This document shows, piece by piece, positions 8,656 through 56,797 of a stretch of 64,000 nucleotides of DNA (position 1 is the first letter of the stretch; each line of letters opens with the position of its first letter). The notes below the pieces were generated by a model. The model was not told the DNA's origin. It ran no database searches and was given only the letters and a program-made list of their open reading frames with translations. The translations under genes and the position numbers were made by a program. Source of the DNA: a virus; IMG/VR virus record IMGVR_UViG_3300045988_123906; one strand, given 5' to 3'.

Positions 8656-9651
8656 TCAGGCCATCTTATATGCGCCGAAGTCACGATCAAACACAATGGC
8701 AATGCCGGTGCGCTTCATCATCAGGAACTCCTGGCTCATATCGGCGTTGTTCATCGAGGTGCCCATCAGCATAGTGACATCACCCTCGGTAACGCGCTTA
8801 ATGGGCTTGGTGTCGCCAGCAAACACGTACAGGGTCTTGTCATCCAGGATGAAATCGGTGGTGCCGGTGGCGTGACGCTGCTTCACAGCAATCAGCTCAG
8901 TACCATTGAAGCGGCCAAAGTGACCCATTGCGTACATATCTTCCTTGGCGGAATCAGACACAACGGCAGTCTTGATCTGACGCAGAGCCTTACGGGTGCC
9001 AACAATCACAGCGGTCTCGCCAGTAGAAGCCTCAACGTGCTCGATCAGGTCCAGCAGCTTGTCCTCGTCAAAAGAGCCGGTCTCAATGTAGGGAGCATTC
9101 AGCTTGCTGAACATGCCAACGAATGCAGCATATGCAGAATCCAGCTCATCCTTGGTGAAGGACTTGGAAACGATATCAACAAACTTGTTAAAGTCGATAC
9201 GGCCAGCCAGAACACGGTTCAGCTCCTCGTAGATCTTAATAGCGTGCAGCTGAGTATTGACGGTGATGTCAGTACCAGCTTCCAGACGCTGACGGCGCAC
9301 GCCCTGAGTACCCTCGGCGATATCGGCAACAGCAAACAGGCACTCGCGCTCGATGTGGAACTTGGGAGTGTCGCCCAGAGCCAGGTTGCGATCCTCGACC
9401 ATGTTCATAAAGAACTCGTCGCCCTTCAGACCTTCCTCAGAAATAACATTGACCAGCTCCTCAACAATAGCGAACACCTTGGAGCAGCTGCCATCACGCA
9501 GAGCCTTAATGTCCAGCTTGGTGGAACCGCCATTTGCCTCAACCAGAGCCTTGCGCAGAGCCTCCTGGGTGTCGTTCACAGAATAATCACCAGCAACGTG
9601 GCCCTTGTAGCCATCGAGAGCCAGCTTGACCAGATTAGAATCAATAGCCAT
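8656..9651 (-). CDS. major capsid protein (HK97-fold type)
   Basis: 331-aa ORF with very strong codon bias, flanked by terminators. It follows the portal, protease/scaffold and 170-aa genes in order. Confidence 0.7.
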   Translation of the reverse strand: MAIDSNLVKLALDGYKGHVAGDYSVNDTQEALRKALVEANGGSTKLDIKALRDGSCSKVFAIVEELVNVISEEGLKGDEFFMNMVEDRNLALGDTPKFHIERECLFAVADIAEGTQGVRRQRLEAGTDITVNTQLHAIKIYEELNRVLAGRIDFNKFVDIVSKSFTKDELDSAYAAFVGMFSKLNAPYIETGSFDEDKLLDLIEHVEASTGETAVIVGTRKALRQIKTAVVSDSAKEDMYAMGHFGRFNGTELIAVKQRHATGTTDFILDDKTLYVFAGDTKPIKRVTEGDVTMLMGTSMNNADMSQEFLMMKRTGIAIVFDRDFGAYKMA

Positions 9652-29373: not shown

Positions 29374-29496
29374 CACGCAATAGTCGGATACCCTTTCGGG
29401 GTCGCACCGTTCAAAGCGGCCCCTTTCCAGCTCCGCAATAGGGGCGTAGCGCCTTAGAGTGTGGCGCATTGTAGACACTCAGAAAAGAGGTTCACT

Positions 29497-40687: not shown

Positions 40688-40766
40688 CCGGGTGTGGCGA
40701 AGTTGGTATCGCGCTAGGTTTGGGACCTAGAGATTTTCGCCCGTTCGAGTCGGGTCACCCGGACCA
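40688..40766 (+). tRNA. tRNA-Pro (anticodon TGG)
   Basis: Cloverleaf by eye: acceptor CCGGGTG/CACCCGG, D arm GCGA-AGTTGGTA-TCGC, anticodon arm CTAGG-TTTGGGA-CCTAG, T arm GCCCG-TTCGAGT-CGGGT, encoded CCA. The variable region is unusually long at about 8 nt. Confidence 0.65.
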
Positions 40767-40789
40767 CAGCATAGGGCTTTATCCTTTCT

Positions 40790-41319
40790 CCCTGTGCAAA
40801 AAAAGCGAAGTTTTTTCTCTTTCACTTTTCCTTTTTCTTCGCTCGTGGCTGAAAATGCCGGGCAGGTACGATAATCCTGCTTTGATATGGAGCTGATGGT
40901 CGTACAACAGTTCGATTCTGTTGGGCTCCAGCTAGGTTCGATGCAGCGGCGTAGTGTAGTACAAAGCTGCTGGGGTGGCGCAATTCCACCGTGGGTGATC
41001 ATACTCCCCCTCTGACACACCCATAACGCTCTGACCGAAAATAATATCCATGATGCAACGGGAGTAGCTACCCGCCACAGTGGATGTGCATGGCTCTATT
41101 ATGAGTAGGCGAATTTGGCACTGCCTGCGAAAGTGGCATAGATGCTCGGTGCCCAGAGTATCGGAGAGTGATTTAAAAGGGCAGCCTTTGAGGATGGACA
41201 CCATAAGAGACCAATTCGCTTATGTGTTGTATCCGCTGACGCGACTGAGTATTGCGCAAACTTTGTAAGCCGCTTGCTCCTCGCCGATGCCGTTACATGG
41301 TTAAATCCTCCTCTCTTAT
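40790..41319 (+). ncRNA. candidate large structured noncoding region between tRNAs (class unknown)
   Basis: About 530 nt with no credible ORF. It contains an acceptor+T-arm minihelix (GGAGCTG...AACAG-TTCGATT-CTGTT-GGGCTCCA, about 40891-40933). It also has nested helices such as GGCAC-TGCC-TGCGAAAG-TGGCA...GTGCC (41117-41153). Confidence 0.3.
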
Positions 41320-41410
41320 GCCGGTATCGCTCAGCGGCTAGAGCACTGGGTTTATACCCCTTGGTCCAGATAAGACAGAGGCGCGGGTTCGAGTCCTGCT
41401 ACCGGCACCA
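41320..41410 (+). tRNA. tRNA-like gene with aberrant anticodon region
   Basis: The acceptor (GCCGGTA/TACCGGC), D arm (GCTC-AGCGGCTA-GAGC), T arm (GCGGG-TTCGAGT-CCTGC) and CCA are all good. The 37 nt between the D and T arms cannot be folded into a 5-bp/7-nt anticodon arm. Confidence 0.45.
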
Positions 41411-41443
41411 TTTTTAGTAACATTTTGAAAGAAGGTATGAATC

Positions 41444-41698
41444 ATGGCAAATCTGAATATCAAAGAAATCGTTGAATGGATGATCGAAGAAGCGAAAAAT
41501 AAGGCTTCCGATAGCATCGCAATCATTGATGAAGGAGAAATCGTTAAAAAGTTCGGAGTGGAGTCTGGATGGCTTCAGAGCCATGGTCCAGAAATTTATC
41601 ACGAGTGCGATCAGCACTCAGAAGTTTTGGACTCTTTGATTTACACTGGAAATGATAGAGATTATTGGTCTATTCAGCTTACTATTAACAAGGAGTAA
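41444..41698 (+). CDS. hypothetical protein
   Basis: 84-aa ORF. Confidence 0.6.
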   Translation: MANLNIKEIVEWMIEEAKNKASDSIAIIDEGEIVKKFGVESGWLQSHGPEIYHECDQHSEVLDSLIYTGNDRDYWSIQLTINKE

Positions 41699-41704
41699 AT
41701 CAAA

Positions 41705-42376
41705 ATGGCTGATAAATATCTCAGTATTATCACGAACTTCGGGTGCCACTACAGCTGCCCTGAGTGTATCGTCCGCAATAATAAGCTCAAGATGACGCCG
41801 ACAGGGGAGTATTCTTCTTACGCTCCGCTGTGGCAAGTTCTTCATAACGAATGCAAAGACTGCAACTGGGTATCTGTGTCTGGTGGCGGCGATCCGTTGT
41901 ATCACTGGTGGGAGCATCAGGCATGGTGGCTTGGCTTTTTCGAGATGTGCCAACGCTCTGGACGCAGGACCGAACTGCATACCAGTTACTTCGACGCAGA
42001 AAACAATCACGAGATTATGTTGTTTCCGTTTGGTAAGTTCGACCGTGTTGTATATCACCTGCATACGACAGATGAGATGGACAATGTTTGTCGTCGAGGC
42101 AACGAAATCGTTCGTGTGGTCTTTGTTGTGGACGACGATATGACTGAGGACGAAATCAATGGAATCGCTGATTATGTCGAAACGTCTAACGAGATCGACG
42201 AGCTTACCTTCCGGCAGCGTGTGGACGAGCACTACAAAGAAACTTACCATCTGCACGACTTCCTACTGGCTGGTCATCAGAAACGCTGGTGGTATGTCAC
42301 CCAGTGCGATTACAATACCTACTTCCATAACGGTAAGCTGTATACCAAGTATACTGATATCTTTGATAAGGAGTGA
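41705..42376 (+). CDS. small radical SAM enzyme
   Basis: The CX3CX2C cluster motif is present near the N-terminus (NFGCHYSCPEC), plus a GGE-like SAM motif (VSVSGGGDPLY). The 223-aa size is that of an activase or QueE-class enzyme, with no SPASM-type extension. Confidence 0.65.
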   Translation: MADKYLSIITNFGCHYSCPECIVRNNKLKMTPTGEYSSYAPLWQVLHNECKDCNWVSVSGGGDPLYHWWEHQAWWLGFFEMCQRSGRRTELHTSYFDAENNHEIMLFPFGKFDRVVYHLHTTDEMDNVCRRGNEIVRVVFVVDDDMTEDEINGIADYVETSNEIDELTFRQRVDEHYKETYHLHDFLLAGHQKRWWYVTQCDYNTYFHNGKLYTKYTDIFDKE

Positions 42377-42690
42377 TTCAGATGTACATCGTCGTAAGCG
42401 ATTACACCAACGAGAAAGCTGATATCTACAAGTCGGTAAGTATCGATAAAGCATTCAAATCAAGAGACGATGCGATTGCTTTTGCCGCTGTCAGCTTTCA
42501 GTGTTTTCTCAATGGGATGCCTGAAGATGAGGCCGCTCGGTATGAAGATGCAGTGAAAGTTGACACTGAATCATACGCTGATTTTTGCGGATGCGAGTTG
42601 AACCCATATCCTGAGTATGTTATCGGTGCGGCAGTCGGCGATGGTGAAGATAATCACATGTACTACATGGTGTTTGAAGTAGAGGAGTGA
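42373..42690 (+). CDS. hypothetical acidic protein
   Basis: 105-aa ORF with a 4-nt overlap with the radical SAM gene. Confidence 0.6.
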   Translation: MIQMYIVVSDYTNEKADIYKSVSIDKAFKSRDDAIAFAAVSFQCFLNGMPEDEAARYEDAVKVDTESYADFCGCELNPYPEYVIGAAVGDGEDNHMYYMVFEVEE

Positions 42691-42730
42691 CCTGCGCAAG
42701 CAGTGGCGGCTCGGAAAGACGAGCGTATAT

Positions 42731-42810
42731 GGCCCCATGGCGAAATTGGCACACGCGGCAAGTTCAAACCTTGCTTATTGTTCCCGGTTCAAATCCGGGT
42801 GGGGCTACCA
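42731..42810 (+). tRNA. tRNA with anticodon CAA (Leu codon UUG) but a short variable region
   Basis: Acceptor GGCCCCA/TGGGGCT, anticodon arm GCAAG-TTCAAAC-CTTGC, T arm CCCGG-TTCAAAT-CCGGG, encoded CCA. The variable region is about 8 nt rather than a class II arm. Confidence 0.55.
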
Positions 42811-42897
42811 CCGGCTCGATCGAGTCGGGAGCTTATTGGGTGAAACGGTTTGGCAAATCGGAAAGACGGTTGACTGCTGGACAGACAGCTTTGATAT

Positions 42898-42986
42898 GCC
42901 GCTATGGTGAAATCAGGCTAGACACATCGAACTTAAGATTCGACGGTAGTAATATCATCTGGGTTCGAATCCCAGTAGCGGTACCA
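42898..42986 (+). tRNA. tRNA-Leu (anticodon TAA), class II
   Basis: Acceptor GCCGCTA/TAGCGGT, 3-bp D stem, anticodon arm TCGAA-CTTAAGA-TTCGA, about 15-nt variable arm, T arm CTGGG-TTCGAAT-CCCAG, encoded CCA. Confidence 0.7.
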
Positions 42987-43074
42987 CCCCGAAAGGGGTA
43001 ACATAATAACTCTTGTCAATTATTCTCGGCTCGCTCGAAAGGGTGCAATTGGCCTTGTAAGCCGAGTATCTTAT

Positions 43075-43146
43075 GCGATTGTAGCTCAGTTGGTAGAGCA
43101 GCAGGCTGAATGCGCGTCGGTGGTTCAAGTCCATCCAATCGCACCA
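43075..43146 (+). tRNA. tRNA-like gene, Phe(GAA)-like but with a 4-nt-short anticodon arm
   Basis: The acceptor (GCGATTG/CAATCGC), D arm (GCTC-AGTTGGTA-GAGC), T arm and CCA are all good. The anticodon region GCAGGCTGAATGC looks like GCAGG-CTGAAAA-CCTGC with 4 nt missing. It may be a pseudogene. Confidence 0.4.
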
Positions 43147-43279
43147 GGGTTCCTGTCTTTTTGGTATGTTACTCAGCAGGGACCTTTTACCTCATTCTTG
43201 TTATTCCCGGCTCTTTTAATACGATGCTTCGGTCTATATCGTATCGAAAGCAACAAGGCTTTGTAAGCCGGGTTTATAT

Positions 43280-43354
43280 GCAGCGGTCGTATAACGGTGA
43301 ATGTGCCAGCCTTCCAAGCTGGAGATGTGGGTTCGACTCCCATTCGCTGCTCCA
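43280..43354 (+). tRNA. tRNA-Gly (anticodon TCC)
   Basis: Acceptor GCAGCGG/TCGCTGC, anticodon arm CCAGC-CTTCCAA-GCTGG, T arm GTGGG-TTCGACT-CCCAT, encoded CCA. Confidence 0.7.
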
Positions 43355-43543
43355 TGCCGCAAGGCAAGACAGCTTTGCCCATTAGGTCTCTAACAAAATG
43401 GGGAATAGGTACATGGTGGTAAAAGTACGATCAATAAAATAGCCACGACTTCCTTGTTGCGCCCTAATGTTTCGGATATTGTGGTCCGAAATGGAAGTTG
43501 TCCTGCTTGGAGAATCGGGAGAGCAGGTGTACCTAATTTATAT

Positions 43544-43624
43544 GCGGCTATGGTGGAATAGGCAGACACGCCAAATTTAGGATCTGGTCTTCGGGTGAGG
43601 GTTCAAGTCCCTCTAGCCGCACCA
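43544..43624 (+). tRNA. tRNA with anticodon TAG (Leu codon CUA), 9-nt variable region
   Basis: Acceptor GCGGCTA/TAGCCGC, anticodon arm CCAAA-TTTAGGA-TCTGG (one A-C mismatch), T arm GAGGG-TTCAAGT-CCCTC, encoded CCA. This is not a CUA suppressor. Confidence 0.55.
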
Positions 43625-44886: not shown

Positions 44887-45318
44887 ATGAAGGCAACTGT
44901 TAAGTACAACAACGTTTTCGTCACTTCCGCTTACGACATCGAGACCCTGAAGAAGGTCAAGAAGTTCCGTCCCGAGGCTCTGGTTCTGTACAAGGGCGAG
45001 GGCAAGGAGAAGGAGCCTGTCTGCGCTATCGGTGTCAGCGGTTCTGCTTCTGCCAATGAGATGGGCGTGACTTTCGCAAAGAATTCTGTCACCACTCCCA
45101 AGGTCGCTACCATGAGCATCGAGCTGCCCAACGGCAAGACCACCGTCGAGGAGATTAACGAGTTCGTTCGTGAGAAGCTGGGTCTGGCCATCGTGAACTG
45201 CACCAAGATCGAGGAGCAGATCGCCGAGGCTATGAGCTCTATCGCTGCTGATGAGGCCGCTATGAACGCTGCTATCACCATCGAGAACGACGCTGAGCCT
45301 GAGGCCGCCGCTGAGTAA
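44887..45318 (+). CDS. abundant hypothetical protein (possible PRTRC-E-like position)
   Basis: 143-aa ORF with capsid-like GC3 codon bias and an acidic Ala-rich C-terminus. Confidence 0.65.
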   Translation: MKATVKYNNVFVTSAYDIETLKKVKKFRPEALVLYKGEGKEKEPVCAIGVSGSASANEMGVTFAKNSVTTPKVATMSIELPNGKTTVEEINEFVREKLGLAIVNCTKIEEQIAEAMSSIAADEAAMNAAITIENDAEPEAAAE

Positions 45319-45361
45319 GAGCGCCGCCTGGTAAGAGCGCCGCCTGGTAAGAGCGCCACTG
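45315..45361. repeat. 16-nt tandem repeat x3 at the stop codon
   Basis: GTAAGAGCGCCGCCTG, GTAAGAGCGCCGCCTG, GTAAGAGCGCCACTG. The first unit contains the TAA stop of the 44887 gene. Confidence 0.8.
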
Positions 45362-45470
45362 TGGTTCCACGCCGGATGTTCCAGCGCAATACGTCCGGCA
45401 TTCGTTTTAGATGATTCGTCAATCCGACGTTTCAACAATAAATTTTTCAAATTAAAAAGGAGTACATATT

Positions 45471-45701
45471 ATGCTGAAGATCACTGTGGGTACCAACACC
45501 AACCGTAAGACTGTCATGGCTACTGAGGACACTACCCTGCGTCAGTGCCTGGAGGAGAACGATATCAACTACTCTGCTGGTCAGACCTCTCTGGATGGCT
45601 GTGTTCTGCAGCCTGGCGACATGGATAAGACCTTTGCCGATATGCACGTTACCGAGAAGGCTTATCTGGTCTGTGTTCAGAAGATGGACAACGCCCGTTA
45701 A
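45471..45701 (+). CDS. ubiquitin-like (beta-grasp) small protein candidate
   Basis: Its 76 aa equal ubiquitin in length, and the strand-helix-strand outline is compatible (MLKITVGT..RKTVMATEDTTLRQCLEEN..). It is codon-biased and lies two genes upstream of the JAB and E1-like genes. It has no C-terminal GG (ends KMDNAR). Confidence 0.45.
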   Translation: MLKITVGTNTNRKTVMATEDTTLRQCLEENDINYSAGQTSLDGCVLQPGDMDKTFADMHVTEKAYLVCVQKMDNAR

Positions 45702-45887
45702 GGAATTAACGGAGTCTGATCCTGAATCTGTTCGAGCGAATCTCGAATAAAGTCCGAATGTAAATCTGTTCTGGTTACAACAGATAAATAGCATTGCAGC
45801 CGCTGGCAGGCCGGTTAAAGTCTGCCTTATATGTGTCCAGTATCTGGGCTTTTAAATGCAAGATATGAATTTAAGGAGGAAGTAACT

Positions 45888-47363
45888 ATGGCATTCACTG
45901 GTTTGCTGACGAAGCTCGGCTCGAACGAATGCAACGAATTTTTCTCTGACATCAAGAGCAGGAACAAATTCGAAACCGAAGATAACACTGTCCTGACCGT
46001 TCTCCGGGCAGTGATGAACGAGGAGCGGCTGGCGACCTTTACCGTTGATCCCGAGAACAAGGGCATCATGCAGTCTCTGGTGGTCGAGAACGAGATCCGG
46101 CTTCCGGACGATGAGAAGCTGACAGCAGCCTATTACGCTGGTGAGCGTGGTCCGTTCACAAAGATCAAGCTCGGTCTGTATTTCCATTTCATCCCCAACA
46201 AGAAAGCAGCCGATTACATCAAGCAGGTGAAAATGTTCGACGAGGACTATAAGAAGGCGGGCTGGGTTCGTCTTGAGGATGTCTCTCTGTATGTCGATCG
46301 CAGCGGTGACGCTCTGGTCTATCAGAACGAAACCAAGCAGGCGACTATGGTGTTCGCTCCTTCGCCCAAGAGAATCCAGGTCATGCAGATGATGATGAGC
46401 TGTCTGCCTCGTCTGCTTCCGTGGGCATTCAAGGATCACCCGGCAACCAGGGATGAACTCGATCTGCTGAAGATGCTGGCTGAGCAGAAGTATGACAAGT
46501 TCAATGCGGCAATCGACAAGATCTGTGCAGCTTATGACTTCTACGGCAAGAAAGTCGAAAGCATGCTCAAGGGATTCTGCAGTCAGAACTTCACCCGCTC
46601 GATCCACGATCAGGAAGAACGTGTCCGCCGGGCAGAGAACAACGTCAACGATTATATGAGCAGCGCCCGCAATGCCATGAAGCAGGTGGATGAAGAGCAG
46701 ATGAAGCTTCTGGTGCTCCGGAATCGTGCCTGCAACTCTGGAGACGATGAGAAGGAGCTGGTCGATTTCTTCAAGGCGAACAAATCTCTTATCGCTCTGG
46801 ATAAGTCCGGCAATCAGCTGTGGGTCGGCGTGAACTGCTATCTGAATGACTACAACGAAGATATCTTTAAGCAGTATGTCGAAAAGCAGGATAAGATGTC
46901 CAGCTACATCTACGAGGAGAGCCCGTATGATATGGATCTCACCAAGAAGCTGTTCCTGGCTATCTGGAAAGAGCACCGGTTCAATCTGCGTGTCTACTGC
47001 GAGTGGATTGTCTATGATGACTGCCGCGTCGAAGCCGTCAGAAGCACTAACATGAATCACCGAGAAGACCTGATGAAGAATCGTTTTCCTCAGCCGCATA
47101 TCGACCGGTTTACCTGTTACGGCGGCTATCGCGGTATGCTTCAGGATCTGGCTCTCCGCCGTGATTACATCGGCGTTTTGTCTACTCTGGTGACTTCTTC
47201 TTCCTATATCAACTGGACGGATTCTACGGTCGTCGAATGGATGATGGAAAAGCTGTTCGGCGATTATAGTAATCGGAAGTGTCTGGAAGATAAGGATGGT
47301 AATCTCTACACCATCAAACAGGTGGTTGAGATCCTGGAAAACGAAAGCAGAGAAACGGCATAA
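45888..47363 (+). CDS. large hypothetical protein of the Ubl-JAB-E1 cassette
   Basis: ATG 45888 follows AAGGAGG. 491 aa with no motif recognised by eye. The antisense ORF 45852..47099 is a shadow. Confidence 0.65.
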   Translation: MAFTGLLTKLGSNECNEFFSDIKSRNKFETEDNTVLTVLRAVMNEERLATFTVDPENKGIMQSLVVENEIRLPDDEKLTAAYYAGERGPFTKIKLGLYFHFIPNKKAADYIKQVKMFDEDYKKAGWVRLEDVSLYVDRSGDALVYQNETKQATMVFAPSPKRIQVMQMMMSCLPRLLPWAFKDHPATRDELDLLKMLAEQKYDKFNAAIDKICAAYDFYGKKVESMLKGFCSQNFTRSIHDQEERVRRAENNVNDYMSSARNAMKQVDEEQMKLLVLRNRACNSGDDEKELVDFFKANKSLIALDKSGNQLWVGVNCYLNDYNEDIFKQYVEKQDKMSSYIYEESPYDMDLTKKLFLAIWKEHRFNLRVYCEWIVYDDCRVEAVRSTNMNHREDLMKNRFPQPHIDRFTCYGGYRGMLQDLALRRDYIGVLSTLVTSSSYINWTDSTVVEWMMEKLFGDYSNRKCLEDKDGNLYTIKQVVEILENESRETA

Positions 47364-47376
47364 GGAGGTTTGAAGT

Positions 47377-48354
47377 ATGCAGCCGGTTAAGATGAATGAC
47401 GAACTGATCCAGGGAATTTTGCAGGAGTTCTATGCACAGGCTTCTGCGTTGGGTAATCTGCAGGCGGATAAGTTCTCCTTTAACAAGAATTTTTCCAAGC
47501 CTGCCAAGGACGCAGTCGAGGTGAATTTCACTCTGGAAGCTTATCACGAGATGTGTGCCCTGATCGATCACTTCAGTACCGAGGTCGCCTGGCACGGTCT
47601 GGTGAATCGCATTGATAAGACTCACTTCCAAATCACCAAGATCCTGGTTTATCCGCAGCAGGTCACGGGCGCAACAGTGAATACGGACCAGGAAAAGTAT
47701 ACGACCTGGCTGTATGAGCTGGACGATGAATCCTTTAATACGCTGCGGTTCCAGGGCCACAGTCATGTGAACATGAGCACTTCTCCCAGCGGTGTGGATA
47801 TGCAGAATCAGTGGGATCTCATTGATACTCTGAGCTCTGAGGATTACTACGTCTTTATGATCTGGAACAAGCGGCGGGAGTATAACGTCCGTGTTGTGGA
47901 CATGGCGGACAATGTCATCTACAGCGGCGATGATGTCAAGGTGACGATTGGAGAGGCCGATACGAAAGGGTTTCTCGAACAGGCGGAAGCGCTCGTCCAA
48001 AAGCCGGTCACAACCACATACAGCGGCTACAACAATGGCTACAGCGGCAACTACAATGGTGCAGCTTACTCCGGCAACTACAGCGCGGGTACAGCAGCTT
48101 ATCAGGGAGGCGCGTTCGTTGGTAACACAAGCTCCGCAGCCGCGTCCACGAAAACAAAAGCAGAAACGAAACCGGCAGCCACGACGAACCCGGCGCTGAA
48201 AACTGTCACGGGTGGAGCCGCCCCTAAGATCGATTCAGCCAAGAGCAAGGGAAGCGAATCCAATCTGATGAAGTATTATCAGGAGAATCCGAACGACCTG
48301 ATGAACAATTGGAATTCGAGCTGCTATCCCTACGCTGACGCATTCCAGGACTAA
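47377..48354 (+). CDS. JAB/MPN (JAMM) metalloprotease with Tyr/Gly/Asn-rich C-terminal region
   Basis: The JAMM motif H-x-H-x7-S-x2-D is present as HSHVNMSTSPSGVD, with an upstream Glu (EVAWHG). The C-terminus is low complexity (YSGYNNGYSGNYNGAAYSGNYSAG). Confidence 0.7.
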   Translation: MQPVKMNDELIQGILQEFYAQASALGNLQADKFSFNKNFSKPAKDAVEVNFTLEAYHEMCALIDHFSTEVAWHGLVNRIDKTHFQITKILVYPQQVTGATVNTDQEKYTTWLYELDDESFNTLRFQGHSHVNMSTSPSGVDMQNQWDLIDTLSSEDYYVFMIWNKRREYNVRVVDMADNVIYSGDDVKVTIGEADTKGFLEQAEALVQKPVTTTYSGYNNGYSGNYNGAAYSGNYSAGTAAYQGGAFVGNTSSAAASTKTKAETKPAATTNPALKTVTGGAAPKIDSAKSKGSESNLMKYYQENPNDLMNNWNSSCYPYADAFQD

Positions 48355-48368
48355 GAAAGGAAACAACA

Positions 48369-49049
48369 ATGGATCTGAGCAAAATCGAAATGGTGTTTGA
48401 CCCTGCGTCTGTTAAGGGTCGCATTCATATCATCGGCTGTGGTTCGGTCGGCTCTACTGTGGCTGAACTGCTGGCACGATACGGTCTGACCAAGTTCACT
48501 CTGTGGGATATGGACTTTGTCGAACCCAAGAATATCGTCAACCAGATGTTCTTCCAGCAGGATATCGCCCATCCCAAGGTGGAAGCTGTGGGGAACATTC
48601 TGTGCAATGTGAATCCTGATATCAAAGAGGATCTGGTTCTGATGCCCAATGGCTGGCAGGGCGAAACCGTCAAGGGTTATGTGTTCCTGGCCGTGGACAG
48701 CATCGAGATCCGCAAGCAGTTCCTGGAGAAGAATAAGTACAATCCTGAGCTGCTCGGTGTGTTCGATATCCGCACTGGCCTGTATGATGCACAGTGCTGG
48801 TCGGCCGATTGGAAGGATCGCAAGCAGATCGACAATCTGAAGAACTCCATGAACTTCACTCACGAGGAAGCAAAGGTAAGTACGCCGGTGTCTGCATGTG
48901 GCATTGTTCAGGGTGTTGCACCGACCGTTCGTTTCATCTGCTGTCTGGCGGTTACGAACTTTATCAATTTCGTGGGAGGCAACCAGCTGAAGAAGCAGAT
49001 CGTTGCAACCCCGTTCATTCTGGGTGAAGAGAGCGTCATGGCGTTCTGA
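48369..49049 (+). CDS. ThiF/E1-like adenylyltransferase
   Basis: Rossmann motif IIGCGSVGS followed by WDMDFVEPKN (the E1 D-x-D-x-V-x3-N pattern). 226 aa. Confidence 0.7.
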   Translation: MDLSKIEMVFDPASVKGRIHIIGCGSVGSTVAELLARYGLTKFTLWDMDFVEPKNIVNQMFFQQDIAHPKVEAVGNILCNVNPDIKEDLVLMPNGWQGETVKGYVFLAVDSIEIRKQFLEKNKYNPELLGVFDIRTGLYDAQCWSADWKDRKQIDNLKNSMNFTHEEAKVSTPVSACGIVQGVAPTVRFICCLAVTNFINFVGGNQLKKQIVATPFILGEESVMAF

Positions 49050-49097
49050 TAAAATCGTAAATAAAAAAATCGTGATGAATAGTTGTTTTTATAAACA

Positions 49098-49329
49098 GCG
49101 CACTTAGGCCAAGCCAAGTGTATCGAATTGTTAAGAAGAGGGGGTCCTCCCCCTGTGGCATCAACATTGCAAAACTAAACGCGTGCCGCCGGATGACGGT
49201 GCTACCACAGGGTTCGAAACGATCTTCCTGGGTCACCCGAATGCGGTTATATAGCCAATTTCAGCATCCAATCATGATCGGGACCTCCTACAGCATGCAT
49301 TATAGCCTCAAGAAACCCATTTAGATCAC
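49098..49329 (+). ncRNA. repeated noncoding element C (immediately upstream of the RT gene)
   Basis: The 5' box is GCGCACTTAGGCCAAGCC..TCGAATTGTTAAGA. This is followed by a GGGGG-TCCT-CCCCC hairpin. The 3' box ATTTAGATCAC lies 23 nt before the RT ATG. Confidence 0.45.
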
Positions 49330-49352
49330 GATGAAATCATAAAGGAGAAACA

Positions 49353-50585
49353 ATGTACATTACATATCTGAATCCTCCTAAGACTCGGCAGATCACTTTT
49401 GATGAGATCCTTGCCGGTGTCCAGAATGTAGAAGCACTGCACTATGGCGGCAGCAACACATCTACAATGACCGTGTGCCGCAATGACTTAACCGCCAAAC
49501 TTCGCGCTATCACAAATGTTCCTGAGATGATCGAGAAGTTGGTGGACTACAACGTGAAATATGCGACGCTTGAATCCAGCGATATCCCGAGTCACTATTC
49601 TCACTTTGAGATTCCAAAGAAATCTGGTGGCTGGCGACCCATTGATGCGCCAGATGAAACTCTTTCTGATGCACTGATCGAGCTGCGGGAACTGCTGAAG
49701 AGCTTTATGATCGCAGATTATCACACGAATGCTTTCGCATATATTCCCAATCGCAGCTTTATCGATGCGGTCCGTAAGCATCAGGCAGGTCACAATAAAA
49801 CCGTCGTTGATGAGGCGACCGGCATGAAAAAGGTCGTCAATTATCAGAATCATTGGGCGGTCAAGTTCGACTTCCATGGTTTCTTTCCCAGTACGACACC
49901 GGATTTTCTGCTCGGCATGATGAGTGTGATCTATCCATTTGCTCTGATCATGCGGGATGCACATGGCCGAGATGAACTGGCAAAGGCGGTCAACCTGTGC
50001 TTTCTTCGCAACGGCCTGCCGCAGGGAACTCCCATCAGTCCGTGGCTTACCAATGTGATGATGATTCCGTTTGACCACTGTATCACTCGCAAGCTGTGCT
50101 ATGGCTACAAAGCAAAGGACGGCATCGATCGCGAGTTTACTTTCACACGATATGCAGATGATATCCTCATCAGCTGTTATCATCACTTTGACCCGATGGA
50201 AATTCAGCAGATCATCATTGATGCGTTGAACTTCTTTCATGCGCCGTTTACTCTGAACGAAACGAAAACGCATTACGGCAACCGGCACTCCAGCAAGAAC
50301 TGGTGTCTCGGCTTGATGTGGAATAAGGACAATCAGATCACGGTTGGCTGGCGCAATCTTAAAATGTTCCGTTCGGCTATGACGAACTATATCGATACAA
50401 AGCAGCATGGCAGGACCTGGGAGCTGGAAGATCTGCAAAAGTTCAATGGCAAGCTCAACTATTATCACATGGTCGAGCCTGAGGTGATCGACGAGCTGGT
50501 TCGTCGTTACAATGCAAAGTTCGGCACTGATATTATTGCGATGCTCAAAGAAGATCTTCGTCCCAAAGAGGGCGTTGTTGCATAA
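49353..50585 (+). CDS. reverse transcriptase (retron/UG/Abi-like, not DGR-like)
   Basis: RT motifs present: IPKKSGGWRPIDAP, KFDFHGFFPS, GLPQGTPISPWLTN, YADDILIS and NETKT. 410 aa with no endonuclease domain seen. Confidence 0.85.
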   Translation: MYITYLNPPKTRQITFDEILAGVQNVEALHYGGSNTSTMTVCRNDLTAKLRAITNVPEMIEKLVDYNVKYATLESSDIPSHYSHFEIPKKSGGWRPIDAPDETLSDALIELRELLKSFMIADYHTNAFAYIPNRSFIDAVRKHQAGHNKTVVDEATGMKKVVNYQNHWAVKFDFHGFFPSTTPDFLLGMMSVIYPFALIMRDAHGRDELAKAVNLCFLRNGLPQGTPISPWLTNVMMIPFDHCITRKLCYGYKAKDGIDREFTFTRYADDILISCYHHFDPMEIQQIIIDALNFFHAPFTLNETKTHYGNRHSSKNWCLGLMWNKDNQITVGWRNLKMFRSAMTNYIDTKQHGRTWELEDLQKFNGKLNYYHMVEPEVIDELVRRYNAKFGTDIIAMLKEDLRPKEGVVA

Positions 50586-51250: not shown

Positions 51251-51517
51251 ATGGAATTGATGTATAAGCCAGGCGATAAAGTAATGATTCGCCCGGATCT
51301 GAACTGCCGTGAAATTTATTGCATGAGATCAGGTCGCCACAATGGGGACTATACCTACAATGTGGTTGATCAAATGGTAGATCAGGCTGGAAAGGTTTTT
51401 ACGATTCAGGGTCCTCGCCACGGAGGAGCTGGATATACTCTGGAAGAGTCTGATTATGGCTGGACCGACGAGATGTTTATTTCTATCAATGAGTGTTGCT
51501 GTGATAGCATTCTGTGA
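51251..51517 (+). CDS. CxC-tail family member P1 (tail NECCCDSIL)
   Basis: The 88-aa body shows Y-x-P-GD-x-V-x-I-R-P-DL ... M-R-S-G ... W-T-D-E-M-F. Confidence 0.7.
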   Translation: MELMYKPGDKVMIRPDLNCREIYCMRSGRHNGDYTYNVVDQMVDQAGKVFTIQGPRHGGAGYTLEESDYGWTDEMFISINECCCDSIL

Positions 51518-51525
51518 GGTGAACT

Positions 51526-51801
51526 ATGAAATACAGATACGATGTCGGTGACGCAGTGGTCGTAAAGCGAGATCTCAGAAAGAATTGCAGCTACTTTATG
51601 ATGTTCGGCCCCAATCCCAAAACATACAACACTGTTGTCGACGAAATGAAAGAGCTCGAAGGCAAGACCGTTCATATCGCAGAACATATTGATGGTCAAT
51701 ACTTCATTGAAGAAGACAATAAATCATATGCCTGGACGGATCAGATGTTCCTGACGCAGGACAAATACAGCGCTGCTTGTGTTTGCGAAAGTTTACTATG
51801 A
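51526..51801 (+). CDS. CxC-tail family member P2 (tail AACVCESLL)
   Basis: 91 aa, same body family (WTDQMF). Confidence 0.7.
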   Translation: MKYRYDVGDAVVVKRDLRKNCSYFMMFGPNPKTYNTVVDEMKELEGKTVHIAEHIDGQYFIEEDNKSYAWTDQMFLTQDKYSAACVCESLL

Positions 51802-51817
51802 TTGGAATGATTTGAAA

Positions 51818-52021
51818 ATGCAGAATCCCTGCCATTATTGTGTGGCTCCCAAGCGTTATCCCGGGTGTCACGATCACTGTCAGGAGCGCCAGCAGTACGT
51901 CGAAACTGAGCTGACACAGCAGCACCAATACAAAGAAAAGTGCCGCATGATCAACGATTTTGATAATGAGCTATACACTCATAACCTGCGTTACAGAGAA
52001 AAATATCAACACAGATATTGA
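51818..52021 (+). CDS. small Cys/His-rich protein
   Basis: Begins MQNPCHYCVAPKRYPGCHDHCQERQ. The start is uncertain (the track ORF begins at 51779). Confidence 0.5.
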   Translation: MQNPCHYCVAPKRYPGCHDHCQERQQYVETELTQQHQYKEKCRMINDFDNELYTHNLRYREKYQHRY

Positions 52022-52045
52022 TTTACATAGAAAGGATGAAGATCA

Positions 52046-52867
52046 ATGGCAGAACCGGCACGTAAGCGCAAGGATCGCGTAGTTCAGTTCCCGCAACAGC
52101 CTGGTTCCGAAGCTCACATCACCATGAGCGAAGCCGAGCTGAAGGAAATGATTTGGGACATCGTGGCTGCCGCTCGCAAGAAAAAGCGCAAGACAAAGCC
52201 AACCAACAGCCTTTATACAAAGGATGGCCGCATCAAACCTTCGCCTGCTGATCCGATTCGTTCCAAAGAGGATTTCCAGAAACTGGCGAATTATCTCGCT
52301 TCCAACGGCGACCCCAAGTTTCGTCTACGCAACAAGGCGATTTTCGTGTTCGGGTGCAGTCTGGGTATTCGTTGTGGCGATCTTCTCAGTCTGAAAACGG
52401 CCGATGTTTACGAACAGGATGGCAGTGTGAAAGAGCATGTCGAACTGATCGAAGAAAAGACCCGTAAGCGCAATGTGTGCAAGATCCCTAAGATGGCAGC
52501 TGACATTCTTGAGGATTATTTCGATGAACAGAATTTCGAGATTAGTCAATCTGATTATCTGTTTCGCAGTCGCAAGGGTGGTCCTCTGACAGTGCGCGGA
52601 TTTTATCGGATCTTGAAAGAAGCAGGGAAAGCGTGTGAGCTAGATATCGATCTGTCCACTCATACCATGCGCAAAACCTATGCAATGGCTGCACTTCAGA
52701 CAGCGAAAAAAGCTGGTACATCTGGGCAAACGATCGAGATGCTTCAAGAAAAGTTTAAGCATAGCAGCCAGCGTGTCACGATGCATTATGTCAAGGCAGA
52801 CCAGGATAAGATGGACGAAATGTCTGATCGTGTGTCGGACTGGTTCGATGATGGAGGAACGGAATGA
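52046..52867 (+). CDS. int: tyrosine recombinase / integrase
   Basis: Catalytic pattern present: GIRCGDLLSL (Arg), HTMRKTYA (H-x-x-R) and HSSQRVTMHYV (His...Tyr). 273 aa. Confidence 0.8.
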   Translation: MAEPARKRKDRVVQFPQQPGSEAHITMSEAELKEMIWDIVAAARKKKRKTKPTNSLYTKDGRIKPSPADPIRSKEDFQKLANYLASNGDPKFRLRNKAIFVFGCSLGIRCGDLLSLKTADVYEQDGSVKEHVELIEEKTRKRNVCKIPKMAADILEDYFDEQNFEISQSDYLFRSRKGGPLTVRGFYRILKEAGKACELDIDLSTHTMRKTYAMAALQTAKKAGTSGQTIEMLQEKFKHSSQRVTMHYVKADQDKMDEMSDRVSDWFDDGGTE

Positions 52868-53139
52868 CTGATTACATGTATCACCCAGGCGACAGAGTCC
52901 GCGTTCGACTTGATCTTTCGGAACATGAAGAATATAAAATGTTGTCTGGCGAAAATAAAGGTCAACGCTGGGTGATTTTTGACTGGATGAAAAAATACGC
53001 AGGACAAGAGATCGTCATTCAAAAGATCGCACAAACTAGTGGTGTTTACAGAGCACAAGGAATCGATGGCTGCATCTGGGCTGATGAGATGTTTGAGCCG
53101 CTTGTCGTGGACGAGTGCGTTTGTGATTCATTGCTGTAA
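52864..53139 (+). CDS. CxC-tail family member P3 (tail DECVCDSLL)
   Basis: 91 aa with WADEMF. It has a 4-nt overlap with the integrase stop. Confidence 0.7.
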   Translation: MTDYMYHPGDRVRVRLDLSEHEEYKMLSGENKGQRWVIFDWMKKYAGQEIVIQKIAQTSGVYRAQGIDGCIWADEMFEPLVVDECVCDSLL

Positions 53140-53160
53140 TGGAATGGAGGAAGTAGAGCA

Positions 53161-53433
53161 ATGTCAAGATATTATCAGTATAAAAACGGAGAGGAAGTGT
53201 TTGTTCGACCTGATCTGGAGCGCGGTGTTCAGTATTATATGCGTTCCGGTTACCGAGCAAATGATGTCAGTGTCACCCTTACTTATTCTCAGGCGCAGCG
53301 GCTTGGCACTGTGGTTCATATTGCCGGCAAGCGCAATGGCCGCTATTACATCGATGAAGATTATGGGTGCGATCGGTGGACGGACGAGATGTTCGCAGCA
53401 CCCAACGAATGTATCTGTACGCCGCTGCTGTGA
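53161..53433 (+). CDS. CxC-tail family member P4 (tail NECICTPLL)
   Basis: 90 aa with WTDEMF. Confidence 0.7.
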   Translation: MSRYYQYKNGEEVFVRPDLERGVQYYMRSGYRANDVSVTLTYSQAQRLGTVVHIAGKRNGRYYIDEDYGCDRWTDEMFAAPNECICTPLL

Positions 53434-53441
53434 GGTGAATT

Positions 53442-53705
53442 ATGGAAGGGAAATACCTGTACGAAATTGGCGACCTCGTAAAAGTTCGCGACGATATTGA
53501 TCGAAACATGTAGTATCGTATGCGTTCCGGTCCCAAAGCTGGACGCGAACCCGGGACTGTATATAATATCGGAAAATATAAGGGGTCAGTCCACAAAATC
53601 ATTTCTTATGAGCAGGGTTATTACAAAATCGATAATGACCCTGATCATCTGTACTGGTCTGATGAAATGTTTGAGCCGATGTCGGTAAACGAAAGCCAAC
53701 AGTAA
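53442..53705 (+). CDS. tail-less paralog P5 with in-frame TAG (53511-53513)
   Basis: Same body family (GDLVKVRDDI..[TAG]YRMRSG..WSDEMF) but ends MSVNESQQ without the Cys tail. The TAG aligns with Gln in paralog P4 (GVQYYMRSG). Confidence 0.55.
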
Positions 53706-53721
53706 CATTGTGACATTGGAT

Positions 53722-53871
53722 ATGTCGGAACTTCATGGGCAGTTGGTTCATATTAAAGATTATTCTTCTCACGGGCACTATATCGTAGAAGAAACATATG
53801 ATTTTAGATGGACTGATGACATGTTTTCTGGTTTGGCAAACAATGAGTGCTGCTGCGAATCTCTGTTATAA
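53722..53871 (+). CDS. half-length paralog P6 (tail NECCCESLL)
   Basis: The 49-aa product matches only the C-terminal half of the family (GQLVHIKD...RWTDDMF) plus the tail. It is below the ORF-track cutoff; GTG 53710 is an alternative start. Confidence 0.45.
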   Translation: MSELHGQLVHIKDYSSHGHYIVEETYDFRWTDDMFSGLANNECCCESLL

Positions 53872-53882
53872 GGAGGCACAAG

Positions 53883-54173
53883 TTGCAAGATACAAAATAT
53901 CATGTAGGCGATGTCGTTATTGTCCGCCAGGATTTAGATTTTAGAAAATGTTATTGGATGCGATCAGGTGGAAAAGAAAACGCTCCTTGGAGGAACGTTG
54001 TTTCAGATGTTGTAACTGAAGACATGATAGAGCTTTGTGGACAGACTATCGAAATCGAAGAAATAGTCGATACGGTCGATGGTAAAAAATACAGAGCAAG
54101 AGGTCGCTACTGGACAGACGACATGTTTTCTGACCAAATCGGCAATGAATGTTACTGTGAATCACTTCTGTAA
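53883..54173 (+). CDS. CxC-tail family member P7 (tail NECYCESLL)
   Basis: TTG start 6 nt after AGGAGG. 96 aa with YWTDDMF. Confidence 0.65.
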   Translation: MQDTKYHVGDVVIVRQDLDFRKCYWMRSGGKENAPWRNVVSDVVTEDMIELCGQTIEIEEIVDTVDGKKYRARGRYWTDDMFSDQIGNECYCESLL

Positions 54174-54594: not shown

Positions 54595-55698
54595 ATGAAA
54601 GTTGTTGAAAGCGCAAGCAATCTGTTCCTGTATGGCGACGATATGAAGGCGTATGACAAGATCCCGGCGGGTACCTATGATATCCACTGTTCTGAGATGA
54701 CCGGTTTCTATCTGTCCCGCCGCCCTGATATGGTCATCAACGAAAAGGTGTATGGTGTCCAGAGCAGCAAGGTTGCCAAAGTGCTGAATTCGTTCAAAGT
54801 GTTCAACCGCAACCTGGGTGTCATCCTCAGCGGCAACAAAGGCATCGGCAAATCTCTGATCGCTAAGATGATTGCAATCGAGGCCGTCAAGCAGGGCTAT
54901 CCTGTCATTCTGGCTAACCGCTATATCGGCGGTATCGCCAATTTCATTGAATCCATCGATCAGGAAGTTATGATCCTGTTTGACGAGTTTGATAAAACCT
55001 TCAAGTCCCGGGATAATGAAAATCCGCAGGATACGATGCTGAGTCTGTTCGATGGCACCAGCGCGGGCAAAAAGCTCTTCGTTGTCACCTGTAACCAGCT
55101 CAATGGTCTGAACGATTATCTGGTCAACCGTCCCGGCCGCTTCCACTATCACTTCCGCTTCGATTACCCGGGCGCTGATGAGGTCGAAACCTACCTCAAG
55201 GATAAGCTCGAAGAGAAGTATTACGATCAGATCCCAGCTGTGGTCGATTTTTCTGGCAAGATCGATCTGAACTATGACTGCCTGCGGTCTATCGCCTTTG
55301 AATTGAATCTGGGCACTCCATTCGCAGAGGCCATCAAGGATCTGAATATCATCAATATGAACGAGACCAGCTACAAGCTCACTGTTATCTTCAAGGATGG
55401 TTACCGTGCGTCCAGCACCAAGCGTTTTGATATGTTCAATGGTGCACAGCGTATCTGTTTTGATGTCAAGCTGAAAGATGGCTACTGGCCTGATTTCTAT
55501 ATCAATACTGAGGATATCCAGTATAACCCCGCCAACGGTGAGCAGTTCATTGATGGAAAGAAGATTGATGTGGATAATCCGTATTCCAAGAGTGATGACG
55601 ATGAAAAGGATCGTTATGAAGCTTTTGAAAAGGACAACGGTGTGGTCAAAGTCATCATCTCTCGTACTCGTGAAAGAGACATTCACTACATGGTCTAA
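54595..55698 (+). CDS. AAA+ ATPase
   Basis: Walker A is GNKGIGKS, Walker B is MILFDEFD, and the sensor/Arg region is NRPGRFHYHF. 367 aa. Confidence 0.75.
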   Translation: MKVVESASNLFLYGDDMKAYDKIPAGTYDIHCSEMTGFYLSRRPDMVINEKVYGVQSSKVAKVLNSFKVFNRNLGVILSGNKGIGKSLIAKMIAIEAVKQGYPVILANRYIGGIANFIESIDQEVMILFDEFDKTFKSRDNENPQDTMLSLFDGTSAGKKLFVVTCNQLNGLNDYLVNRPGRFHYHFRFDYPGADEVETYLKDKLEEKYYDQIPAVVDFSGKIDLNYDCLRSIAFELNLGTPFAEAIKDLNIINMNETSYKLTVIFKDGYRASSTKRFDMFNGAQRICFDVKLKDGYWPDFYINTEDIQYNPANGEQFIDGKKIDVDNPYSKSDDDEKDRYEAFEKDNGVVKVIISRTRERDIHYMV

Positions 55699-56538: not shown

Positions 56539-56796
56539 ATGAAGTATGCAAAAGGTGAAATCCTTAGTGCATATCAGCGCTTAACGAAAAGTATCAAATA
56601 TGGAGATGCATACTGGTCTGAAAAAGCAATGATAAGTGATGTTCTGAGTGATTACTTCAATCGGATCGAGAGCAAGAAAGTTGTAATCGATCCAAAATAT
56701 GAAAGCTATAGATGTCCAAAGTGCAATACAACGTTAATTGGTCAATATGATCACTATTGCGGACAATGTGGTCAGAAATTGGACTGGAGGATTTGA
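56539..56796 (+). CDS. small zinc-ribbon protein
   Basis: Contains CPKCNT...CGQCGQ. 85 aa. Confidence 0.55.
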   Translation: MKYAKGEILSAYQRLTKSIKYGDAYWSEKAMISDVLSDYFNRIESKKVVIDPKYESYRCPKCNTTLIGQYDHYCGQCGQKLDWRI

Positions 56797-56797
56797 A

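Follow-up and report, generated by a model that had tools for sequence, protein, structure and literature searches.

In bacteria, the conjugation of ubiquitin-like proteins (Ubls) has been described as a host weapon against phages, in the Bil systems, in the Cap2 and Cap3 proteins of the cyclic oligonucleotide-based antiphage signalling system (CBASS) and probably also in Bub (PMC11601596). Type I Bub (6E.1) consists of BubAB, a Ubl-E2 fusion, BubCD, a JAB-E1 fusion, and BubE, and the JAB domain of BubCD has been shown experimentally to cut BubAB after a conserved Gly (PMC11601596). The sole phage-borne pairing of a Ubl with a JAB domain found in the literature searched is that of TAPI (Ubl) and TAPK (JAB plus NlpC/P60) in lambdoid and T1-like phages, for which the JAB domain is predicted to cut behind the Ubl domain (PMC1779556). 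That pairing is part of a tail module, has no E1 and has a Ubl that ends in Gly. The cassette described here is in the accessory region of a phage and differs in each of these respects. It lies at positions 44887 to 49049 of a stretch of viral DNA of 64,000 nucleotides (IMG/VR record IMGVR_UViG_3300045988_123906; "the window" means this whole stretch), and its five genes encode a protein of 143 amino acids (p143), a Ubl of 76 amino acids, a protein of 491 amino acids (p491), a JAB/JAMM metallopeptidase and an E1/ThiF-type adenylating enzyme. With a probability of about 0.55, we read this cassette as a self-contained phage module for Ubl activation, conjugation and deconjugation, which is transcribed and evolves with a retron-type noncoding RNA (ncRNA) and reverse transcriptase (RT) encoded downstream.

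Order and conservation of the five genes

The original prediction had placed five open reading frames (ORFs) in this region, and all five are present on the plus strand at the coordinates given below. Related loci were collected by searching genome collections with an alignment of the JAB protein, and every ORF was then scanned with hidden Markov models (HMMs) of the families. The order p143, Ubl, p491, JAB, E1 is identical in 38 of the 38 diverged loci that hold all five families, an arrangement that is far beyond chance. Whole-genome collinearity can be ruled out as the source of this order: the 10-kb flanks of several distant loci contain no homologues of window genes except the cassette and the RT, and hence the block is not merely kept because the genomes as a whole are collinear. 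In the window, the gaps between the p491 and JAB genes and between the JAB and E1 genes are 13-14 nucleotides, and in other loci the ORFs abut or overlap. The families are carried by gut phages of humans, ruminants, horses, rabbits and termites, and the JAB family alone has more than 1400 clusters at 90% identity.

Some loci have an optional gene of 150-190 codons between the JAB and E1 genes; it is found in L048 (8983-9510) and at the equivalent place in about 12 distant loci, including L069, L075, L078-L082, L089, L092 and L098, and is absent from the window. Its product is extremely acidic, with the pattern MTRxEF...W.EL.DFC... and long runs of Asp and Glu, and may be a DNA mimic. As a candidate for the missing E2 it was rejected, being a very acidic protein without a conserved Cys.

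The cassette is a real, widespread and unannotated phage module, and a variant of the prokaryotic Ubl/E1/JAB kind. Its new features, compared with the known systems of that kind, are that it is phage encoded, that its Ubl has an Ala end, that its E1 does not have the canonical Arg, that it includes two new protein families and that it is coupled to a retron-type RT. A full-text literature search turned up neither a Ubl-JAB-E1 cassette in a phage nor a retron that has Ubl, E1 or JAB proteins as its partners, and no paper that links retrons with ThiF or Ubls; no earlier description of the five-gene set together with a retron-type RT was found in that search. We know of no described retron type that has a Ubl, E1 or JAB effector.

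The ubiquitin-like protein, its processing and its activation

The second gene (45471..45701, plus strand) was singled out in the original prediction for a product of ubiquitin-like length and outline but without a Gly-Gly end, and modelling bears this out. AlphaFold2, run on an alignment of 25 sequences, gave a beta-beta-alpha-beta-beta model with a predicted local distance difference test score (pLDDT) of 89.2, in which only the last six residues are floppy. When this model was compared with the PDB by Foldseek, all 50 of the matches listed were ubiquitin or Ubl chains or complexes, with a TMq mostly of 0.54-0.71, a probability of 1.0 in 48 of the 50 and E values of about 1e-3. The structure comparison therefore supports a beta-grasp fold for this protein. 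No sequence model matched it in scans of NCBIfam, Pfam and PHROGs. A weak match of the Ubl HMM to an ORF upstream of the p143 gene in one locus (L053) was set aside and attributed to an apparently chimeric sequence (P0054) within the alignment used (A1).

The C-terminus of the Ubl is the most informative part of the family for its processing. The window protein ends in ...MDNAR, and a K-x-D-N-A pattern is kept across the family, with K71, D73, N74 and A75 each present in 43-45 of 45 diverse members and Ala75 in 44 of the 45. About half of the members stop exactly at ...D-N-A, and the others have 1-4 additional, unconserved residues (R, A, V, C, LAA, VVM, NVK, YAA, GNDV or RVIV). A conserved D-N-A followed by 0-4 variable residues suggests a precursor that is trimmed to a defined C-terminus. 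The mature end is probably Ala75, with Arg76 removable, rather than a Gly.

A peptidase that could do the trimming is encoded two genes downstream (47377..48354, plus strand). This protein of 325 amino acids has a core of approximately residues 1-210 and a low-complexity Tyr/Gly/Asn-rich tail, as first noted; the length of this tail is variable, and some homologues, such as P0136 (219 amino acids), are without it. The predicted JAMM motif, HSHVNMSTSPSGVD, corresponds to residues 128-141, is preceded by Glu69 and is complete: the pattern E69...H128-S-H130-x7-S138-x2-D141 is invariant in 51 of 51 members at E69, H128, S129, H130, S138 and D141. The profile scores are weak but concordant, with an E value of 1.2e-4 for the PADLOC JAB model and 0.027 for RPN11, aligned on the motif; the Prok-JAB model matches 4 of 22 JAB members (best 0.0098), and the window protein has no Pfam match. 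From its sequence, the JAB protein is predicted to trim the C-terminus of the Ubl and to remove conjugates.

The first gene of the cassette (44887..45318, plus strand) appears to be tied to the Ubl both in its expression and in its arrangement. It has a good ribosome-binding site, and p143 itself ends in an acidic, Ala-rich tail. Within its family, Ser14, Phe63, Gly99 and Glu109 are invariant (46/46) and Lys26 nearly so (45/46), while no usable match was obtained for p143 in Pfam, NCBIfam, PHROGs, PADLOC or a PDB profile search, or with E2s in hhalign. The codon bias first noted for this gene is real and extreme: in the window, CTG, AAG, GAG, CGT and AC[CT] are used at 100% by both p143 and the Ubl, a pattern shared with the gene at 8656-9651 for the putative major capsid protein, while the three enzyme genes do not have this extreme bias. 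Across loci, the median effective number of codons, a measure that is noisy on short genes, is 36.6 for p143, 39.9 for the Ubl and about 50 for the enzymes and the RT, and in 30 of 34 loci no gene of the cassette has a value below that of p143. These biases point to p143 and the Ubl being made in large amounts, with p143 as an abundant partner of the Ubl. Because the bias is capsid-like, it argues for action on abundant proteins in productive infection and not for a silent prophage gene. Two terminator-like hairpins found by a consensus scan between the Ubl gene and p491 (45805..45849, plus strand) may act as an attenuator that sets the enzyme genes apart from the strongly expressed pair of p143 and Ubl; the number of such sites in this region is not above that in shuffled sequences, so that the evidence is weak.

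Where the two genes are separate, that for p143 is always directly 5' of that for the Ubl, and L080 (713-2209) and L082 (4987-6481) each carry a tandem duplication of the pair as a whole. In these two loci, no RT lies in the 7-8 kb that follow the E1 gene. An in-frame fusion of the two proteins with the Ubl first (junction ...VVKADNA|AVIKIVG...) is encoded in L077 and in the IMG/VR phage L182, whose mutual identity is 58%, and is followed by p491, JAB, E1 and RT. The fusion is thus present in two independent phages. It implies that the Ubl must be freed by cleavage after Ala to be activated, and also ties p143 functionally to the Ubl. In the window, 2.5 tandem copies of TAAGAGCGCCGCCTGG are present at 45316-45365, from the p143 stop codon on.

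The last gene (48369..49049, plus strand) encodes a minimal, single-domain adenylating enzyme of 226 amino acids. The motifs IIGCGSVGS and WDMDFVEPKN, on which the assignment to the ThiF/E1 group had been based, are present, and the Pfam ThiF domain (PF00899) scores 69.4 bits against a cutoff of 28.1 (E=3.3e-19). Among the matches of the family profile, the active adenylation domain of Uba1 (4.5e-16) and UBA5 (2.5e-15) rank first, followed by UBA6, TcdA, MoeB, MccB and Cap2, and the best matches in defence libraries are the PADLOC E1-E2 (Cap2-like) models. Invariant residues include G23-C-G25-x-x-G28, D47, D49, N55, K70, D110 and C177 (Cys177 in 47/47); the protein has no CxxC zinc motif. Cys177 lies a few residues before a helix that is weakly aligned to the helix following the catalytic Cys250 of UBA5. 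The active site is kept in its Gly loop and in its Asp and Lys residues and is altered at the Arg of the N-x-x-R-Q motif, which is replaced by Asn. Two results had been named in advance as refuting the reading of the cassette, a protein of 76 amino acids that is not a beta-grasp and an E1-like protein that lacks the adenylation residues, and neither was obtained.

As the best NCBIfam match of this enzyme is ThiS adenylyltransferase and the protein is a minimal, single-domain one of the ThiF/MoeB kind, it could also serve a sulfur carrier of the ThiS/MoaD/CysO/TtuB type, with a Ubl thiocarboxylate that would donate sulfur to a small molecule, a phage tRNA or DNA, a JAB protein that merely matures the carrier and p143 in the role of MoaE. 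JAB-E1-Ubl triads are known in sulfur assimilation clusters (PMC1779556). A small Ubl with a partner of about 140 amino acids recalls MoaD-MoaE, and seven phage tRNA genes lie 1-4 kb upstream of the cassette. However, library scans of the conserved block showed no rhodanese, cysteine desulfurase or PP-loop thiolase, p143 has no match to MoaE or to any other Pfam family, and the E1 profile is nearer to conjugating E1s (Uba1, UBA5) than to MoeB or ThiF. In addition, the Ubl ends in D-N-A, while all characterised sulfur carriers, to our knowledge, end in Gly-Gly. We consider a role in sulfur transfer to be quite improbable.

The PDB relatives of the E1 also include MccB and PaaA, enzymes that adenylate without conjugation. 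In microcin C biosynthesis, MccB requires a terminal Asn, of which the conserved Asn beside the C-terminus of the Ubl is reminiscent; modification of that end, either to a peptide-nucleotide or by cyclisation of Asn74, would then give rise to a toxin or a signal. The substrate here is, according to the model, a folded beta-grasp protein of 75 residues and not a short peptide, and its conserved end residue is Ala and not Asn. Moreover, the block contains no export or immunity genes, and the JAB protein and the logic of a fusion precursor fit Ubl systems better. Hence, we regard this explanation as very improbable.

p491, the transfer step and the PRTRC parallel

In contrast to these components, which each resemble a known family or fold, p491 (45888..47363, plus strand) was left as an unknown by the original prediction and is still without a matching fold. 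Its ORF is open from 45831 (510 amino acids), but a start at 45888 is preferred because an AAGGAGG ribosome-binding site precedes this ATG, the homologues align from the Met encoded there and the two hairpins at 45805-45849 lie in front of it. The AlphaFold2 model (pLDDT 89.4, predicted template modelling score 0.51) is multi-domain, with an N-terminal alpha/beta domain, a central helix of 53 residues and a C-terminal alpha/beta domain. Foldseek found nothing significant for it in the PDB (best E value 0.49) and a single match in BFVD, to an uncharacterised Siphoviridae protein; a profile search of PDB sequences and Pfam scans of 28 members were empty. The family is large, with at least 1916 clusters at 50% identity (E<=1e-3), 732 of them at E<=1e-30. 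Only Asn298, His404 and Cys410 are invariant among 48 sequences with a median identity of 22% to the window protein, and an enzymatic Cys/His site is therefore likely. On this pattern, p491 is a candidate for a Cys-dependent transfer enzyme, whether E2- or ligase-like, or for a second peptidase.

It had been suggested that p491 could hide an E2, although none was recognised by eye. The searches agree with the latter observation, for both p491 and p143, and neither bear out nor refute the former: Foldseek, the PDB profile search, the Pfam scans and hhalign against UBE2D2, UBE2N and PRTRC_B were all null for p491, and a resemblance in one motif is all that is left. The p491 consensus y-x-P-N-P-H-I-D-x-y-x-C-l-G is placed by hhalign on the E2 loop Y-H-P-N-x7-C-L of UBE2D2 and UBE2N (P about 0.5), and the same segment is also placed on the equivalent loop of PRTRC_B (P about 0.5). 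The spacing from Asn to Cys equals that of UBE2D2 and UBE2N, without statistical support. This resemblance is a lead and not a finding.

If p491 is not an E2, then the nearest mechanistic precedents, by analogy, are the SAMP/UbaA/HvJAMM1 system of archaea and the TtuB/TtuC/JAMM system of Thermus, in which a JAMM protein and a small beta-grasp modifier work with a minimal E1 and conjugation can proceed without a dedicated E2. These systems differ in the Gly-Gly ends of their modifiers, in the double role of the latter as sulfur carriers, in being cellular and in having no equivalents of p143, p491 or the RT.

A looser likeness to bacterial Ubl conjugation operons had also been proposed, which holds for the logic of Type I Bub but fails in tests of the Bub and Bil components. 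As in Type I Bub, the closest precedent for the fusion, the Ubl is fused in some members to a partner of about 130-140 amino acids from which the JAB protein would release it, the JAB protein stands beside a minimal E1 of the homodimeric type, and catalytic residues are non-canonical. In contrast to Bub, however, the partner gene is mostly separate here and precedes that of the Ubl, with fusions in 2 loci only; p143 has no similarity to E2s, and its invariant Ser, at position 14, does not fall within the last third of the protein; the JAB and E1 parts are not joined and the E1 keeps an invariant Cys; Pfam scans found no match to the DUF6527 protease (BubE); p491 and the RT are additional; and the genes are carried by a phage and not in a defence island of bacteria. 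Like Bil (BilABCD) and Cap2/Cap3 of type II CBASS, the cassette combines in one operon an E1, a deconjugase of the JAB type and a Ubl, the last being in some cases a Ubl-like C-terminus in those systems. It differs from them in that no E2 (in Bil the separate protein BilB) was recognised, in that the E1 is a single domain of 226 amino acids and not a multidomain IAD-AAD-CYS protein (BilD) or an E2-E1 fusion, and in being encoded by a phage and not by the host.

The closest parallel in layout is the PRTRC cassette of plasmids and integrative and conjugative elements, to which the order and sizes of the genes had been likened. A real PRTRC cassette, on plasmid pPniHBP1_2 of Pseudomonas nitroreducens (NZ_CP049141.1), encodes in order ParB, a protein of 155 amino acids with an acidic Ala/Pro-rich tail, PRTRC_C (70 amino acids), a protein of 459 amino acids, PRTRC_B (233 amino acids) and ThiF (250 amino acids). 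The sizes of 155-70-459-233-250 amino acids compare with 143-76-491-325-226 in the phage, and both cassettes are borne by mobile elements. The phage genes could be very distant homologues of PRTRC that share its putative role in establishing or maintaining a mobile element after entry. Membership in sequence, however, fails. A relation is detectable only in the Rossmann region of ThiF, and ThiF alone gave a signal when the window proteins and 22 JAB members were scanned with NCBIfam and when hhalign and hmmsearch were used. Even at E<=1-10, none of the PRTRC models A-F of NCBIfam matches a protein of the cassette; PRTRC_ThiF reaches 20.2 bits against a cutoff of 144.75; and HMM and hhalign comparisons with the real PRTRC proteins were null. 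A tblastn search of plasmids with the E1 gave only generic ThiF or Cap2-like matches and no PRTRC. The fourth gene encodes the E2-like PRTRC_B there and a JAB protein here; PRTRC_C ends in Gly and the phage Ubl in Ala; an RT and an ncRNA are attached here; and the ParB of the plasmid has no family match among the called neighbours in four relatives (the window's own flanks were not scanned for it). As no PRTRC model but ThiF matches and position 4 holds PRTRC_B instead of a JAB protein, we speak of a parallel to PRTRC and not of membership, and descent from a common cassette with a shared role is improbable.

Two observations were made on the plasmid proteins (L101 41967-44034, minus strand of NZ_CP049141.1). 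The protein of 459 amino acids, which is unannotated, has a V-H-G-C-G-Y motif near its C-terminus, in relative terms about where p491 has its His404/Cys410 motif, and PRTRC_B of the same plasmid has an E2-like loop, G-N-V-Y-Q-D-G-N-F-C.

The retron-type unit and the phage that carries it

The cassette was said to lie directly upstream of an RT unit, and a retron-type RT is indeed encoded immediately after the E1 (49353..50585, plus strand; RVT_1 E=1.5e-15). The spacer of 303 nucleotides between the two genes has conserved ends and a middle that is hypervariable in diverged loci. A retron-like ncRNA of the msr-msd kind can be placed in it at 49069..49332 (plus strand), from about 20 nucleotides past the E1 stop codon, with inverted repeats ATCGTGAT (49069-49076) and ATCACGAT (49325-49332) at its ends. 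The predicted fold pairs the 5' ATCGTGAT with the 3' ATCACGAT (z = -2.1) and contains two conserved 5' hairpins and a long, hypervariable central stem. Between loci the terminal repeats differ and yet stay complementary, as in TCGTGGT/ACCACGA, ATTAACTGTAAT/ATTACAGTTAAT and CGCTTGTAAT/ATTACAAGCG. Covarying terminal repeats that enclose a structured RNA directly upstream of an RT suggest the msr-msd layout of retrons; no Rfam family matches the ncRNA. The RT is nearest to retron RTs. Its best NCBIfam match is the retron St85 family RT (1.9e-41), at 142 bits and below the cutoff of 235, and its best PADLOC match is RT_II-A (2.5e-37). The likeness to retrons lies in this RT, in the ncRNA and in the presence of a conserved protein module beside them, and the difference in an RT that is below curated cutoffs and is carried in a large phage.

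An RT of this family is found downstream of the E1 gene in 36 of 40 informative loci, within 150-600 nucleotides in 25 of them. Conversely, the best 80 of 521 RT relatives in IMG/VR, which reach down to 43% identity only, all have the cassette upstream (80/80). Three loci (L056, L080 and L082) have no RT within 7-9 kb, and in a fourth (L099) the RT is fragmented. As the cassette can occur without an RT at that distance, the link is strong but not obligatory.

This association raises the question of what the two parts do for each other. It is possible, though we hold it only tentatively, that the Ubl machinery and the retron form one new system, with conjugation as the arm of a retron or with a Ubl system that is gated by, or aimed at, the RT and its msDNA; this system would be used during infection by large, Clostridia-associated gut phages, and would include p491 as a new Cys/His family and a Ubl activated at Ala. 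The link to the retron would point to defence or exclusion as the role. The cassette may be the effector of a phage-borne defence retron, in which the RT and msDNA restrain the Ubl machinery until a competing phage perturbs the msDNA, upon which the Ubl would be conjugated to proteins of the competitor or the host, causing Bil-like interference or abortive infection; the biochemistry would be the same and the role another. The same-strand position of ncRNA and RT directly downstream of the cassette and the constancy of this arrangement speak for this proposal, and it is established practice to treat conserved neighbours of retron RTs as effectors. Antiphage immunity is the function of Bil and of Cap2/Cap3 in CBASS, and probably of Bub (PMC11601596), and a tyrosine recombinase gene is nearby. 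On the other hand, the capsid-grade codon bias of the Ubl and p143 is unexpected for the guarded effector of a quiescent prophage, the RT is absent in the three loci just named and is below curated retron cutoffs where present, and the msDNA is only predicted. We find a role as a defence retron unlikely, but the least unlikely of the alternatives considered.

Several findings weigh against a module for conjugation as we propose it. The JAB assignment has weak profile statistics. No E2 is recognisable, with p491 null by Foldseek (PDB, BFVD), HMM and hhalign (UBE2D2, UBE2N, PRTRC_B), and p143 null against E2s in hhalign and in profile searches. The Ubl family has no C-terminal Gly or Gly-Gly, and an Asn-Ala end is unusual for conjugated Ubls. 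In the E1, Asn58-Gln59 is invariant, aligned with N-R of UBA5 and N-R-Q of Uba1, so that Asn takes the place of the N-x-x-R-Q Arg in every member, and the adenylation chemistry may therefore differ; in addition, the placement of Cys177 in the crossover loop depends on a weak alignment. Finally, the cassette is found without an RT within 7-9 kb in three loci.

If the cassette nevertheless acts as a conjugation module, the anatomy of its families suggests that Ubl would be made in abundance, either with a few additional C-terminal residues or fused to p143, depending on the phage, and that the JAB protein would cut after the invariant ...D-N-A and expose Ala75. By homology, the minimal ThiF/UBA5-like E1 would adenylate Ala75 and probably take the Ubl onto Cys177 as a thioester. 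The subsequent step is more speculative. The Ubl may be handed on by p491, which would serve as an E2- or ligase-like carrier through its Cys410/His404/Asn298 site, or it may be transferred directly, as in the E2-free archaeal SAMP (and TtuB) systems; the acceptor may include, or be chosen by, the abundant p143, and the JAB protein might also undo the modification. Cassette and ncRNA-RT would probably work as one unit, with the Ubl machinery either serving as the retron's effector arm or being regulated by the RT and msDNA.

The window is from a phage, as a portal protein (phrog_2739, 4e-113) and a large terminase are encoded on the minus strand in its first 26 kb. From about 26 kb on, the plus strand carries accessory genes, seven tRNAs and a nicotinamide phosphoribosyltransferase, and the cassette lies within this accessory region, on the strand opposite to the structural genes. 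The p491 locus is 100% identical in a second IMG/VR contig (L001; IMGVR_UViG_3300045988_134837, 139.7 kb). Relatives are gut phages of 70-150 kb, of which MT835544, from human faeces, is the sole one among GenBank phages (73% nucleotide identity). Contigs with the cassette are binned in metagenome-assembled genomes mostly of Clostridia (Oscillospiraceae, Ruminococcus, Acutalibacteraceae, Lachnospiraceae and Defluviitaleaceae of the termite gut), and the hosts, as judged from this binning only, are therefore probably Bacillota.

Other features of the window were noted in passing. The capsid-like gene used above for comparison of codon bias is an ORF of 331 amino acids on the minus strand (8656-9651; phrog_4088, function unassigned) with a bias as extreme as that of p143 and the Ubl, and presumably encodes the major capsid protein or some other virion component of very high abundance. 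A tRNA cluster at 40688-43624 (plus strand) comprises Pro-UGG, Ile-UAU, Leu-CAA, Leu-UAA, Gly-UCC and Leu-UAG and a seventh tRNA (43075-43143) that was found by Rfam only and was not called by ARAGORN. A RAGATH-5 match in Rfam at 29384-29436 (plus strand) is barely above its gathering score (52.1 bits against 50). Downstream of the cassette are a gene for an ATPase (54595-55698, plus strand; phrog_2376) and that for the nicotinamide phosphoribosyltransferase (56738-58276, plus strand; phrog_448, 4.7e-163), which together suggest a neighbourhood of NAD salvage or of accessory genes. A gene for a tyrosine recombinase of the Phage_integrase type (52046-52867) follows shortly after the RT and is flanked by an array of six small, paralogous ORFs (53-108 amino acids; 51251-54173, plus strand). 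Each of the six ends in C-x-C-(D/E/T)-(S/P)-(L/I)-L and carries W-(T/A)-D-(E/D/Q)-M-F, and a seventh, related ORF (53520-53705) has the motif WSDEMF and not the Cys-rich end. The recombinase is likewise flanked by small ORFs in two relatives (L046 and L051).

In summary, where Ubl conjugation has been described as a weapon of bacteria against phages, here a complete Ubl machinery sits in the phage and not in the host. If our reading is correct, this cassette would give access to a Ubl that is activated at Ala rather than at Gly, by an E1 without the canonical Arg. It also offers two protein families of unmatched fold, one of them with an invariant Asn, His and Cys. A link between retrons and protein tagging could reveal a new output of retrons, or a phage strategy of counter-defence or of virion modification. 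Finally, the PRTRC cassettes of plasmids and integrative and conjugative elements, for which an explanation has long been missing, share the layout of the phage cassette and may become easier to understand through it.

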